Program-made: the position numbers and the translations under genes
From: Escherichia phage vB_EcoM_G2540
Reading direction: 5' to 3' (one strand)
DNA length: 64,000 bases
Sequence record: MK327936.1
Notes under the pieces: model-generated
Databases searched by the model: none
Seen by the model: the letters and a program-made list of their open reading frames with translations, nothing else
What the model was told of the DNA's origin: nothing
Shown here: positions 3,513-38,401 of the stretch, piece by piece
How the letters are laid out: each line of letters starts with the position of its first letter
How positions within the stretch are numbered: the stretch's first letter is position 1

Positions 3513-3772
3513 AAAAGATTCCTTTTAATGTATCTTTTAGACCATTCTATCATATCATCATAATCTAAAAAGTATTCATCAAATTCAGCCATGCAAACAA
3601 CACCTTGTGCTGCTTTTGATGTGATATAAATTATTCCAACATATCTAGAATCTTCTTCGGTATAATCAATATTTGCTATGAATTCATCATTAATGTCAAA
3701 TGTCGAAAACTTCACAGTATGCATCCTTAATACAAGATACAGCCATATCTTGTAATGATTTAGGTGTGTCAT
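3509..3772 (-). CDS. Hypothetical protein (46.1 position; true start may be internal)
   Basis: ORF track; overlaps upstream ORF by 77 nt so annotated start is uncertain. Confidence 0.35.
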   Translation of the reverse strand: MTHLNHYKIWLYLVLRMHTVKFSTFDINDEFIANIDYTEEDSRYVGIIYITSKAAQGVVCMAEFDEYFLDYDDMIEWSKRYIKRNLL

Positions 3773-3959
3773 TATCTAAAATGTTGAAGTTAAAAGATAC
3801 AGCCCAGTCAGTGCAGACCGTAACCTTTTTAATACAATTATCTTCAACCTCTAACGGTTCAAACCAATATTCAATAATTTCTTTATGACCAATATCATCT
3901 TTTACTTCGCATTCAAAATGCTGACTCATCATAACATTTTTAAATTCATCAAAAGTCAT
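3696..3959 (-). CDS. Hypothetical protein (46.2 position)
   Basis: 87-aa ORF between genes 47 and 46. Confidence 0.4.
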   Translation of the reverse strand: MTFDEFKNVMMSQHFECEVKDDIGHKEIIEYWFEPLEVEDNCIKKVTVCTDWAVSFNFNILDNDTPKSLQDMAVSCIKDAYCEVFDI

Positions 3960-4975
3960 TGTGTTGCCTCTACATATAACTGATTTGCATATTGAATAAG
4001 TGCTTCACGGTCAGAATCAGTGATGTCTGGAATTGCATTAATGTATTCTTCCATCAACGTCTGAAGAGATTGAACTTCAACTTCTTCACTTTCATCTGAC
4101 TCGACAGAGTTATCAATCTTTGACACAACTCGTAATGAATGCACAACTTTTTCTAGTTCAGATTCGAACTTCGTTAGATTTTTGTCTACTTCAGTTACTA
4201 TAACACGTACTGATAGATTTGTAAAATCTTTATAGTCAATTTTTCCTTTAAATGGATAATGAATTCTGCGATGCCAAGTAGTGTTGTTTGGAATAAATTC
4301 CATTCGTTCTGTTTCTGTATCAAACATCCAGAACCCGCGAGGGTCATTCTCGTCACCTGCAGTTAGTGTCCATGGTGTCCCAATATATCTGACATTTGCA
4401 GCCTCAGAGATAGTATGGAAGTGACCAGACCACACTTCTTTATAAGTCTTAAGGAAATCAGGTTCAAGACCGTGAGATTTCATTCCTTTATAAAAATAAA
4501 ATCCATTCAGTTCCCAGTGACCAACACAAAAAGAAGCAGATGAAGTTTTGATGTGTTCAAGAATTTCACCAGTATTTTCTTCGCACATCCAAGGAATCAA
4601 ATCAATCAAACATCCGTCAAAATCTACTGTAGTAGGCTTATCATATACTTTAACATTAGGATATTTAGCCAAAAGCTCAGTAGAGGCATTTGGATGCATT
4701 ACATTTTTGTAGTGGAGATCGTGATTTCCTACAATAGTATGTAATGTGATTCCAGCGTCATCAAGCATTTGAACTATTTCACGGGCAAACTCCATAGTTT
4801 TATGCGTGATTGCTTTTCGCACATCAAAAATATCACCATATTGAATCCATACAGTAATTCCATTTTTCTTAGAATATTCTATCGCTTGCTTAATTCCATC
4901 AATTTGAATACCGCGAATCCACTCATCATCAGCTTTAACGCCTAAATGCCAATCACCCAAGTTTAGTATTTTCAT
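3956..4975 (-). CDS. 47: Recombination nuclease subunit gp47 (Mre11/SbcD-like phosphoesterase)
   Basis: 339 aa; calcineurin-like motifs GDWHLG, GDIFD, GNHD; size matches T4 gp47. Confidence 0.9.
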   Translation of the reverse strand: MKILNLGDWHLGVKADDEWIRGIQIDGIKQAIEYSKKNGITVWIQYGDIFDVRKAITHKTMEFAREIVQMLDDAGITLHTIVGNHDLHYKNVMHPNASTELLAKYPNVKVYDKPTTVDFDGCLIDLIPWMCEENTGEILEHIKTSSASFCVGHWELNGFYFYKGMKSHGLEPDFLKTYKEVWSGHFHTISEAANVRYIGTPWTLTAGDENDPRGFWMFDTETERMEFIPNNTTWHRRIHYPFKGKIDYKDFTNLSVRVIVTEVDKNLTKFESELEKVVHSLRVVSKIDNSVESDESEEVEVQSLQTLMEEYINAIPDITDSDREALIQYANQLYVEATQ

Positions 4976-28991: not shown

Positions 28992-29209
28992 GTAACCTTT
29001 AAGCAGTATTCTTCTACATGCTGTTTACGACCTTTCTTATCAATAAAGGTATATTCAACGAATGTTCCAATGTAGTCTTTATCTACATCATGCGGACTAT
29101 TAATTGGACATTTAGTACGGCAAATGCGTTCCCATTGACGAATAATTACTGCCTTATTCTTTGGGTCATATGGATGTGGATAATGTATATTCATAATAAC
29201 GGTTCCCAA
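28982..29209 (-). CDS. Hypothetical small protein
   Basis: 75-aa ORF. Confidence 0.35.
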   Translation of the reverse strand: MGTVIMNIHYPHPYDPKNKAVIIRQWERICRTKCPINSPHDVDKDYIGTFVEYTFIDKKGRKQHVEEYCLKVTWL

Positions 29210-29658
29210 TCAACAATCACAATTTCTAATTTAGAGGAATATGTATCTAAAATCCCCTCAATAATATCCCAGTTCCCTTTACCTATGCCTGCACCAATCC
29301 TAGGCATATAGATTGTAGGTTTAATCAGTTTATTTTCACCAAACTCATTTAATTCTAACATACAATTCATTAAAGCGGAATACTCAAAATTTGGCCCTGG
29401 TTGAAATTGAGTATAAAGGTTGAAGCAATACGCTTTATGAGTCCTAAAATATTTTTCATAGACTGAGTAAGAACCGAGTTTAGTTACATCACCCCATTCA
29501 GTCTGTAATTTATCAGCTTCCAAAATTTTAGGGAAAGCTTTGGTTAATTGACCCGCTACGCCTGAACCCATAGTATGAAAACAATTGCATCCATGCGCAA
29601 TATTTTTACCTTCAGCGAAAAGGGCGACAATATCGCCCTTGATATATTTTACAATCAT
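29191..29658 (-). CDS. Macro-domain (ADP-ribose binding/processing) protein
   Basis: 155 aa; GCNCFHTMGSGVAGQ resembles macro-domain nucleotide-binding loop; T4 tk.4 position. Confidence 0.6.
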   Translation of the reverse strand: MIVKYIKGDIVALFAEGKNIAHGCNCFHTMGSGVAGQLTKAFPKILEADKLQTEWGDVTKLGSYSVYEKYFRTHKAYCFNLYTQFQPGPNFEYSALMNCMLELNEFGENKLIKPTIYMPRIGAGIGKGNWDIIEGILDTYSSKLEIVIVDWEPLL

Positions 29659-30541: not shown

Positions 30542-31003
30542 TCATTGAGTTTTAATTACTGCTTTAGAAGCCTTTCCTGGTAAACGACGACTGTTGATAA
30601 TTGCCATCCTGCATTGAAGTGACGGGTTTTTGAACTTCTCATTAGGCTTACAAACCGTAAATCCAAGCCAAAGATTTCCATCTGTGATTTCTAAACGTCC
30701 AGGACGATATTCAACCCCATCAATAAAATCCTCGTCAATGTCAGGACGCGGAGGCATACTCAGGAATTCATTAACTTCTAAAACATGGTCTTTTATTTTA
30801 TGGAATAATTCAAAAACATATGTCTCATCAATCTCCCGTTGAATTGCACGATCAAGAAGATGCTGAGAATATTTTAGATGAAACGATGAGACTCCTGCTG
30901 CTTTTGATGCCTCACGAATCTCATTGTTAATTTGACGAAACTCCGACTCAAAGTGACGACGAAGCTTATTTCGACGGATAAAAACTTCTGTATTGATAGT
31001 CAT
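30542..31003 (-). CDS. regB: Endoribonuclease RegB
   Basis: 153 aa; size and position match T4 RegB; early promoter upstream. Confidence 0.8.
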   Translation of the reverse strand: MTINTEVFIRRNKLRRHFESEFRQINNEIREASKAAGVSSFHLKYSQHLLDRAIQREIDETYVFELFHKIKDHVLEVNEFLSMPPRPDIDEDFIDGVEYRPGRLEITDGNLWLGFTVCKPNEKFKNPSLQCRMAIINSRRLPGKASKAVIKTQ

Positions 31004-31030
31004 GTTATTCTCCTCTTAACTGATAGAAAA

Positions 31031-31061
31031 ATTATACCACAGTCAAGAGGAAAAGTAAACA
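31031..31061 (-). promoter_or_regulatory. T4-type early promoter upstream of regB
   Basis: GTTTACT-18-TATAAT on minus strand. Confidence 0.5.
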
Positions 31062-31062
31062 G

Positions 31063-31650
31063 TTATTCTTTAAATCTAATCAATTTATTCATAGACTTTG
31101 AAACTTCTGCACGAACCTCATGTAAGTTTTTAAGCTGTTCAAGACGCTGCTCATAGTAAGCAATTTCATCTTCTTCGAGACAGTCCTGTGAATCTTCTTT
31201 AAGATAACGTGCATAGTCCTGAAAAGCTTTACGGACTACTTCCTGGAAGTCATCAAGACTTTGAATTTTCTTAGGAGCGGCAGATACACGACGAGGTGCA
31301 GTATAATACTCATAACCAAACCCTGCACTTAATTGAGCCATTAGTATTTTTCCTCTGGTTGGAATATCGCTGATGTCAGGAACTTCAGTATCTTTTATAC
31401 TAAACCCACGTTTTAAGCATTCCGTTATAATGTCTGATTGACGCTTTCGCAAAAATTCTAACTTATCGTAAAAGAACGTAACATGACCAGAGCCTAAAAT
31501 AAACTCGGAAGATATTTTAAAATCTTTAACCCGCTTACCATTTGCCACATGTTTACGAACTATACCAAAAACACGCGGCAATTCACGATACTCAGCCATA
31601 AGATGTTGGTCGGTCAGTTCAGAAACAAGTGTTAAATTGATACGAGTCAT
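31063..31650 (-). CDS. denV: Endonuclease V (pyrimidine-dimer glycosylase) homolog with extended divergent C-terminus
   Basis: [12 protein letters not shown]...[13 protein letters not shown] matches recalled T4 EndoV for about 100 aa; then diverges and continues to 195 aa. Confidence 0.7.
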
Positions 31651-31687
31651 AATTTCCTCCAAGTAGTTGATGAATGTATAGTATCAA

Positions 31688-31708: not shown

Positions 31709-31717
<9 letters not shown>
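31688..31717 (-). promoter_or_regulatory. T4-type early promoter upstream of denV
   Basis: GTTTACT-17-TACTAT then ACATTCATCAACTAC leader and GGAGGA. Confidence 0.55.
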
Positions 31718-32511
<794 letters not shown>

Positions 32512-37043: not shown

Positions 37044-37119
37044 TGGTCGAGGCAGTAGGGATCGAACCTACGACCCAGGACTTAGAAGGTCCTTGCTCTT
37101 CCTTCTGAGCTATGCCCCG
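37044..37119 (-). tRNA. tRNA-Arg (anticodon TCT), CCA encoded
   Basis: Manual fold: acceptor CGGGGCA/TGCCTCG, D-arm GCTC..GAGC, anticodon loop CTTCTAA, T-arm GTAGG-TTCGATC-CCTAC. Confidence 0.75.
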
Positions 37120-37122
37120 TAA

Positions 37123-37788
37123 TTAAAATTTCATTTTTCGACCTTTAAACCATCCTTCTGGAATTGGGTCAGTTTTCTTAATAAGTTTAGAAACTTTTTC
37201 ATCTAATGAATGAATCCACATCATACCAAATTGGGAATTCTTTTCGCCTTGTTGGTGTTTATTTCTGGCGTGAGATTCTTTCATTTTATTAATAGTTTCA
37301 AGAGTATGGGTCTTACCCAAGAAAGATTTAGTATTTAAAAATTTCTCTCTATACTTAGGATTATCCCAAAGCTGTTTAAACCTTTCTGAACCCATTTTAC
37401 GATATTTTTCTTTAAGGTCTGGGTCGTTCTCAAATCTGGTTTTAAAAGCGGCAGCTCCTTTTAAGGAAGCTTCTTTCTTTTTATCCAAATATTCTTTAGT
37501 GTTTAAATGGTCCCAACCACCTTCACCACCTAATTTCAAATTATAAACATCAGGGCGCTTTAAAAACTCTTCAGTCACAATATTCTTTTCTGACTCAAAC
37601 ATAGAGGTTTTATCGTCAAAGAACTCTAATATTTCTTTAGAAAAATTTTCTATACCATACTTATCTTGGGCTCTTTTTAATAATTTACCAGAACCCATAT
37701 ATCCATCATCTAAATTTTCGGTAGAATGCACACCAATATAAATTTTATTATTAATTTTATTTGTTATTTTATAAGTGTAATGGAACAT
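37123..37788 (-). CDS. segB: GIY-YIG homing endonuclease SegB
   Basis: 221 aa; YTYKITNKINNKIYIGVHS GIY-YIG motif; embedded in tRNA cluster as in T4. Confidence 0.8.
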   Translation of the reverse strand: MFHYTYKITNKINNKIYIGVHSTENLDDGYMGSGKLLKRAQDKYGIENFSKEILEFFDDKTSMFESEKNIVTEEFLKRPDVYNLKLGGEGGWDHLNTKEYLDKKKEASLKGAAAFKTRFENDPDLKEKYRKMGSERFKQLWDNPKYREKFLNTKSFLGKTHTLETINKMKESHARNKHQQGEKNSQFGMMWIHSLDEKVSKLIKKTDPIPEGWFKGRKMKF

Positions 37789-37829
37789 AAATATCTCCTA
37801 TTTCTAAGAGTATTTATGTTCCCAAAATA

Positions 37830-37901
37830 TGGCCCTGGGTGGAATTGAACCACCATCTGGCGATTATGAGTCGCTTGCTTGAACCTTCCAGCTACAGGGC
37901 C
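37830..37901 (-). tRNA. tRNA with CAT anticodon (T4 tRNA-Ile-type; Ile via lysidine, or Met)
   Basis: Manual fold: acceptor GGCCCTG/CAGGGCC, anticodon loop CTCATAA, T-arm GGTGG-TTCAATT-CCACC. Confidence 0.75.
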
Positions 37902-37907
37902 TTGATA

Positions 37908-37980
37908 TGCTGATTGACGGAATCGAACCGCCGACATCCTCATTACAAGTGAGTTGCTCTACCTACTGAGCTAAATCAGC
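37908..37980 (-). tRNA. tRNA-Thr (TGT)
   Basis: Manual fold: acceptor GCTGATT/AATCAGC, D-arm GCTC-AGTAGGTA-GAGC, anticodon loop CTTGTAA, T-arm GGCGG-TTCGATT-CCGTC. Confidence 0.8.
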
Positions 37981-37987
37981 GAAATTA

Positions 37988-38074
37988 CGGAGGCGATAGG
38001 ATTTGAACCTATGAGTCGCCGGAGCGACTGCCGGTTTTCAAGACCGGTGCATTAAACCACTCTGCCACGCCTCC
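37988..38074 (-). tRNA. tRNA-Ser (TGA), long variable arm
   Basis: Manual fold: acceptor GGAGGCG/CGCCTCC, anticodon loop CTTGAAA, long variable arm, T-arm ATAGG-TTCAAAT-CCTAT. Confidence 0.8.
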
Positions 38075-38076
38075 AG

Positions 38077-38150
38077 TCTCCATACAAGGATTTGAACCTT
38101 GGACCTCCTGATCCCAAATCAGGCGCTCTACCAAACTGAGCTACACGGAG
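38077..38150 (-). tRNA. tRNA-Pro (TGG)
   Basis: Manual fold: D-arm GCTC-AGTTTGGTA-GAGC, anticodon stem CCTGA/TCAGG loop TTTGGGA, T-arm CAAGG-TTCAAAT-CCTTG. Confidence 0.8.
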
Positions 38151-38162
38151 TAAATTAAATTT

Positions 38163-38234
<72 letters not shown>

Positions 38235-38240
38235 AAACTT

Positions 38241-38327
38241 TGGTACGAGAAGTGGGACTCGAACCCACAAGGAAATCATTCCGCAGCATTTTAAGTGCTG
38301 TGCCTTTACCAATTTGACCATTCTCGC
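38241..38327 (-). tRNA. tRNA-Leu (TAA), long variable arm, CCA encoded
   Basis: Manual fold: acceptor GCGAGAA/TTCTCGT, anticodon stem CAGCA/TGCTG loop CTTAAAA, T-arm GTGGG-TTCGAGT-CCCAC. Confidence 0.8.
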
Positions 38328-38328
38328 G

Positions 38329-38401
38329 CTGGGAATAAAGGACTCGAACCTTTGCATCTAGCAGTCAAAGTGCTATGCCTTACCAACTTGGCTAATTCCC
38401 A
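38329..38401 (-). tRNA. tRNA-Gln (TTG)
   Basis: Manual fold: acceptor TGGGAAT/ATTCCCA, anticodon stem TAGCA/TGCTA loop CTTTGAC, T-arm AAAGG-TTCGAGT-CCTTT. Confidence 0.8.

Follow-up and report, generated by a model that had tools for sequence, protein, structure and literature searches.

What happened between denV and regB in Escherichia phage vB_EcoM_G2540? The T4 genes of this region run in the order regB, vs.3, vs.4, vs.5, vs.6, vs.7, vs.8, denV, ipII, ipIII, e, and the full interval of regB, vs.3 through vs.8 and denV is present in T4 and in phage Kha5h. In G2540, a single reading frame that begins as denV, the gene of endonuclease V, is the next gene before regB. We analysed this locus within a stretch of 64,000 nt of the 168.9-kb genome (record MK327936.1), referred to below as the window. 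An earlier note on the same DNA, which gave the T4 gene order correctly, took the frame for a denV homolog with a long divergent C-terminus, considered vs.3 to vs.8 to be missing, and suggested that a deletion had fused denV to downstream sequence. Is the frame an unusually long DenV, a new fusion protein with a role of its own, or the scar of a deletion?

Two known genes in one reading frame

The frame lies on the minus strand at 31063..31650 and encodes a protein of 195 aa composed of DenV residues 1-97, a linker of six residues (TRGKIL) and residues 1-92 of Vs.3, the protein now known as TadIV-1. The longest open frame runs on to a TTG at 31662, but the ATG at 31650 is preferred as the start because the GGAGG at 31656..31660 (minus strand) fits it, lying 5 nt before the ATG as read from the sequence; it is the element that serves denV, and with it the chimeric ORF, as Shine-Dalgarno sequence. 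The same GGAGG contains GGAG, the motif cleaved in early mRNAs by RegB, which is encoded next door. The identical 195-aa protein is on record as QBO63362.1 of G2540, deposited as "putative pyrimidine dimer DNA glycosylase". The opposite strand of the interval holds short antisense ORFs only, all without support.

When the ORF was compared with 50,697 phage genomes by BLAST, its two halves matched different genes and the matches overlapped only at the junction. The denV match covers nucleotides 1-305 and is closest for Kha5h and its relatives, and nucleotides 1-291 (codons 1-97; 31360..31650, minus strand) are 100% identical in DNA to denV of Kha5h. Nucleotides 287-588 are 100% identical to the 3' end of vs.4 and all of vs.3 in AR1, RB14, JLBYU22 and other phages. 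The complete 92-aa vs.3 gene, with its own ATG, occupies 31063..31341 on the minus strand and supplies residues 104-195 of the chimera.

At the protein level, 84 of the first 97 residues are identical to T4 DenV, and the likeness stops right after DISDIP, at P97; residues 1-99 align to residues 1-99 of T4 endonuclease V (PDB 2END; E = 1e-51). T4 DenV is 138 aa long. The earlier note was right on all these points: the close match over about 100 residues, the divergence after DISDIP, the total of 195 aa and the length of the T4 protein. It was mistaken about the tail, which is neither diverged DenV nor random downstream sequence: it is the whole of Vs.3, identical to T4 Vs.3 at 89 of 92 positions, and its residues 1-92 align to residues 1-101 of PDB 9WIW (E = 2e-38). 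A Pfam match of the tail to Tex_N was rejected as noise (E = 0.003; 17.7 bits against a cut-off of 32). NCBIfam has no model for either half, and an AlphaFold2 prediction of the chimera made without an alignment was unusable (mean pLDDT 36).

That the protein might be a natural long-tailed DenV, with a C-terminal region diverged but still homologous, is an idea to which we give next to no credence. DenV homologues of 144-242 aa do occur among the best 120 of 1,165 homologue clusters, but every one of them keeps the motifs S-R-x-R-x-x-E-K and P-x-W-Y-K and carries its extra length after them, whereas the chimera has neither motif and its tail matches the vs.3 DNA of other phages at 100% identity. 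The DNA match to vs.3, the three-way alignment described below, the match to 9WIW and the conservation columns of the DenV family refute it.

The junction and the missing interval

The earlier note proposed aligning the ORF to denV and to the regB-denV interval to locate the junction, and such an alignment places it in a run of five nucleotides, TTCCA, at 31360..31364 on the minus strand. In a three-way alignment the chimeric ORF equals Kha5h denV up to ...GATATTCCA, and from TTCCAACCAGAGGAAAAATACTAATGGCT onward it equals vs.4/vs.3 of AR1; the crossover falls inside TTCCA, where the two parental matches overlap. The sequence is found in both denV and vs.4 of the relatives, and one copy is kept here. 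Around the junction, the five exact shared nucleotides stand within about 19 nt of patchy similarity. Past the junction, the 18 nt at 31342..31359 (minus strand) are what is left of the 3' end of vs.4; in the frame of vs.3 they encode linker residues 98-103. The end of vs.4 normally reads ...VFQPEEKY-stop; the chimera reads it one base out of phase, as P-T-R-G-K-I-L, and then passes directly to the ATG of vs.3.

Compared with Kha5h, the window is collinear on both flanks (97.4% and 98.6% identity) with a gap of 2,458 nt in between, which equals the distance between the two TTCCA copies in the Kha5h locus (positions 4287 and 6745) and is a size relative to Kha5h, the closest relatives spanning 1.7 to 3.3 kb more than the window does here. 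Because these relatives differ in the accessory block, the true parent may have lost a stretch of another length. Relative to Kha5h, the missing sequence comprises denV codons 98-138, ipIV, vs.8, vs.7, vs.6, vs.5 and all of vs.4 except its last 24 nt. The claim that vs.3 to vs.8 were absent therefore holds for vs.4 to vs.8, together with an internal-protein gene and the 3' end of denV, and fails for vs.3, which is retained as the C-terminal 92 residues. No second copy of the deleted genes was found in the 64-kb window by tblastn or blastn.

Collinear flanks, a short direct repeat at both parental sites and a single copy of it at the junction are the marks of a microhomology-mediated deletion, and all three are seen here. 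Halves that match different genes, the TTCCA overlap and the gap against collinear Kha5h bear out the suggestion of a deletion that fused denV to downstream sequence. We consider it highly probable that a single microhomology-mediated deletion of about 2.5 kb, fusing denV codon 97 to the end of vs.4 and vs.3, explains the locus as a whole. By this account, an ancestor or a laboratory stock of G2540 would have lost the roughly 2.5 kb that separate denV codon 97 from the final 24 nt of vs.4, and the new junction would have fallen by chance in the reading frame of vs.3. Because of this frame, ribosomes starting at the denV ATG would read through six linker codons into the complete vs.3 and yield the 195-aa chimera. 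The expected consequences are threefold: DenV would lose its third helix and C-terminal aromatic segment and become inactive; ipIV, vs.8, vs.7, vs.6, vs.5 and vs.4 would be lost; and Vs.3/TadIV-1, a sponge for N7-cADPR, would still be encoded whole with its own ribosome-binding site and ATG.

Scanning for promoters and terminators, both in the window and in the intact interval of Kha5h, turned up no more hits than shuffled controls did. The one element that we note is the intact promoter-like site before regB (see below).

Occurrence of the junction

The exact 195-aa protein is recorded on one contig only, of 168,886 bp. A search of IMG/VR, JGI metagenome contigs and GTDB genomes with a 28-mer across the junction came back empty, and no entry among the 50,697 phage genomes runs across it. 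When 5.8 billion protein clusters were searched, 1,165 contained homologues, and the two halves are not combined in any of the 120 that scored best. A relaxed 21-mer matched five IMG/VR contigs by chance; these have nothing else in common with the chimeric ORF. The event is recent, since the DNA of each half does not differ from that of the corresponding gene in other phages.

A junction known from one contig and from no other collection searched could also be an artefact of assembly, or could stem from a deleted minority variant in the lysate that was sequenced, with the real phage carrying an intact denV and vs.4 to vs.8; the paper that describes G2540, which reports a broad host range only and mentions neither denV nor a deletion, is silent on the region and would fit this too. 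We nevertheless regard an origin of this kind as unlikely. Collapse of a repeat is improbable because the sequence shared at the junction, five exact nucleotides within about 19 nt of patchy similarity, is far shorter than assembler k-mers, and both flanks are cleanly collinear with the relatives. Deletions between short direct repeats are, moreover, reportedly classical in T4 (Singer and Westlye 1988).

The truncated DenV

At first sight, the DenV half looks like an enzyme. It scores 50.8 bits against Pfam PF03013 (gathering cut-off 23), a model of 81 positions that covers the N-terminal part only and so cannot reveal a truncation of DenV. The stretch from MTRINL to AEYRELPRV aligns position for position with 2END, and Thr2, Arg3, Arg22, Glu23 and Arg26 are all present. 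The alpha-amino group of Thr2 is reported to be the nucleophile and Glu23 catalytic, and Arg3, Arg22 and Arg26 are likewise reported to have roles in the enzyme (Morikawa 1992; Vassylyev 1995).

What the half lacks is the end of the protein. The profile of PHROG 1183 is covered over positions 1-101 of 139 only. Region 98-138 of DenV reportedly consists of the third helix, whose R117 and K121 touch the DNA, followed by the WYKYY segment (Morikawa 1992; Vassylyev 1995); site-directed mutagenesis in the Lloyd laboratory reportedly found the WYKYY segment to be needed for dimer-specific binding. A search of the open-access literature gave no usable statement on the role of the DenV C-terminus. Conservation in the family was computed here from an alignment of 114 representative DenV homologues. 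P106, S114, R117, E120, K121, P126 and Y129 are each at least 90% conserved and all absent from the chimera. Those in the third helix (S114, R117, E120 and K121) reach 98-100%, while W128 and K130, neither of them present in the chimera, are close to 88% conserved. The C-terminal aromatic segment P126-x-W128-Y129-K130, which is also gone, is conserved even in homologues of 45% identity.

Of the defining features of a functional endonuclease V, two are thus missing from the DenV half, namely the third helix and the C-terminal aromatic segment. DenV of G2540 is very probably inactive, since seven positions of the lost segment are conserved at 90% or more in the 114 homologues; the prediction rests on this conservation and on established structural work. 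The chimeric ORF would accordingly be a truncated denV allele and not a functional member of the endonuclease V family, and, with DenV inactive, G2540 would be expected to show the UV sensitivity of a T4 v- mutant.

Loss of denV is not confined to this phage. AR1 has no denV between e and Ip4, and the DenV half found no BLAST match in AR1, RB14 or RB18. As these phages live without it, denV is dispensable in nature. In AR1 (positions 593-1760 of the extracted locus), RB14 and RB18, denV is seen to be variably present in the accessory block between e and the internal-protein and vs.8 genes. A separate DenV allele of 122 aa stops early, at ...QQRLNEKF; it occurs on 5 contigs, the longest of 168.6 kb, and shows that the DenV C-terminus has been truncated in nature a second time, independently, in T4-like phages.

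The retained TadIV-1

T4 Vs.3 was experimentally shown to be TadIV-1, a homodimeric two-helix sponge for N7-cADPR, the signal of type IV Thoeris (Chen et al., Nat Commun 2026; PMC13243611); PDB 9WIW belongs to that study. Only the "long" homologues of about 90 aa were active, the binding pocket is formed by a flexible N-terminal loop, deletion of residues 2-18 was tolerated but that of 2-32 was not, R17, R18 and K24 are important in the T4 protein, and expression level appears to matter, as in the case of T2 (PMC13243611). The Vs.3 half of the chimera shows every sequence feature of a TadIV-1: it is similar over the full length and has the loop of the long group, which is unchanged except for V21A, with R17, R18 and K24 (T4 numbering) all kept. 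What the earlier note described as a charged helical tail is thus, by its sequence, a complete known anti-defence protein.

In the chimeric context, the start codon of vs.3 now lies inside a translated ORF. Its native Shine-Dalgarno sequence, GAGG at 31352..31355 (minus strand), survives within the vs.4 remnant that encodes the linker. Since GAGG and ATG are unchanged and are predicted to be at least as accessible in the RNA as in their native vs.4-vs.3 setting, free 92-aa TadIV-1 is probably still made beside the TadIV-1 that forms the C-terminal domain of the chimera, and we infer that sponge function continues in G2540. The yield of free Vs.3 may be lower than in the relatives, because the TAATG coupling of termination and reinitiation with vs.4 is lost and ribosomes elongating the chimera cross the start site.

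Could the fusion itself have been selected? The chimera might work as an N-terminally extended TadIV-1 to which the DenV part lends DNA tethering, stability or altered expression, or the deletion might have rewired vs.3 expression by placing the gene under denV signals, or removed a gene that triggers defence; the gain would be escape from type IV Thoeris or from the triggering of a defence by an accessory gene, paid for with UV repair. The join is in frame and keeps every TadIV-1 residue, R17, R18 and K24 included; with residues 2-18 dispensable, there is no obvious conflict between an N-terminal extension and function; TadIV-1 seems to depend on its level of expression; and the host range of G2540 is broad. 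If true, a deletion would here have remodelled an anti-defence gene in nature. Against these points, a join by chance is in frame with a probability of about 1 in 3, and the fusion is a singleton that has not diverged from its parental genes and gives no sign of spread or purifying selection. The promoter scans yielded nothing above shuffled controls, and a 97-residue DenV fragment stripped of conserved core elements is unlikely to fold; the whole 103-residue N-terminal extension is probably misfolded. Selection for the fusion thus strikes us as very unlikely. We infer that the fusion itself has no selected role, and the single deletion set out above most likely produced an ordinary accident that disables UV repair and not a new kind of enzyme.

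Neighbouring genes

The gene for RegB (153 aa; 30542..31003, minus strand) is intact and matches Pfam REGB_T4 with E = 6e-69. As the earlier note stated, it is the next gene downstream of the chimeric ORF, from which a spacer of 59 nt separates it. The vs.3-regB spacer contains a sigma-70-like promoter at 31031..31059 (minus strand; TTTACT, 17 nt, TGnTATAAT), which is a consensus match only and is intact in Kha5h too. With its near-consensus extended -10, it is presumably the early promoter of regB. Both regB and this promoter-like site are untouched by the deletion.

On the other side, denV is immediately preceded by a gene for an internal head protein (94 aa; 31709..31993, minus strand; PHROG 3499), an arrangement shared with Kha5h; the lysozyme gene e is also upstream of the chimeric ORF. 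Rfam and tRNA (ARAGORN) scans found nothing in the 30.5-32 kb region. The sole RNA genes in the window are eight T4-type tRNA genes at 37044..38401 (minus strand), for Arg, Met/Ile (CAT anticodon), Thr, Ser, Pro, Gly, Leu and Gln. At the tk.4 position, an intact ORF of 155 aa (29191..29658, minus strand) is found whose relatives in other phages carry a macro-domain or phosphatase label.

Annotation and implications

The practical value of the locus is mainly as a warning on annotation. Plain 92-aa vs.3 genes of JLBYU22 (3524-3802 of its extracted locus), JLBYU24 and JLBYU31 are labelled "putative pyrimidine dimer DNA glycosylase", a name almost certainly transferred from the G2540 chimera. The 90%-identity protein cluster of the chimera lumps Vs.3 with the DenV fragment, and the truncated protein still scores as a glycosylase because PF03013 models only about the first 81 positions. 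Another label is found in teqdroes, slur02, slur04, slur11, slur13 and BYEP02, where vs.3 and vs.4 are called "endoribonuclease" or "RegB", and the molecule name of 9WIW (TadIV-1) is "Endoribonuclease"; these names look like a spill-over from neighbouring regB. The gene vs.3 should now carry the name tadIV-1.

Beyond annotation, the ORF predicts a T4-like phage that is naturally DenV-deficient and UV-sensitive and still carries an anti-Thoeris sponge, and the chimera offers a ready-made N-terminal fusion with which to test whether the flexible N-terminal loop of TadIV-1 forms its ligand pocket, as has been proposed. No new mechanism or family is implied.

Comparison with known systems

With T4 endonuclease V (DenV, T4-pdg; PDB 2END, 1VAS and 2FCC; PF03013), the chimera shares its N-terminal 97 residues including the Thr2 nucleophile, the ribosome-binding site and the genomic place downstream of e and an internal-protein gene; it differs in that residues 98-138 are replaced by an unrelated protein. 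Tequatroviruses naturally without denV, such as AR1, RB14 and RB18, resemble G2540 in tolerating the loss, but they lack the whole gene and keep vs.4 to vs.8, whereas G2540 keeps the 5' two-thirds of denV and has lost vs.4 to vs.8.

With TadIV-1, the likeness extends over the whole of residues 104-195 of the chimera, a full member of the long group including the two-helix dimerisation region, and vs.3 occupies the same place as in T4, directly upstream of regB, with the same Shine-Dalgarno sequence and ATG. In contrast to T4, vs.3 of G2540 is embedded in frame in a larger ORF and so forms part of a protein with a 103-residue N-terminal extension beside the flexible pocket-forming loop, and its upstream partner vs.4, with the overlapping TAATG stop-start, is gone.

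The event itself resembles the spontaneous deletions between short direct repeats reportedly obtained in T4, as in the rII and e regions (Singer and Westlye 1988; Owen et al. 1983): a single repeat copy, TTCCA, is left at the junction, a non-essential block of a few kilobases is lost and a chimeric ORF is formed. Those deletions were in selected laboratory mutants, whereas the present one is found in the deposited genome of an environmental isolate, and its repeat, of 5 nt, is close to the lower limit of the lengths usually seen. Both halves of the protein come from known families and the event is of a classical type; the DenV-TadIV-1 architecture is undescribed and most likely an accident.
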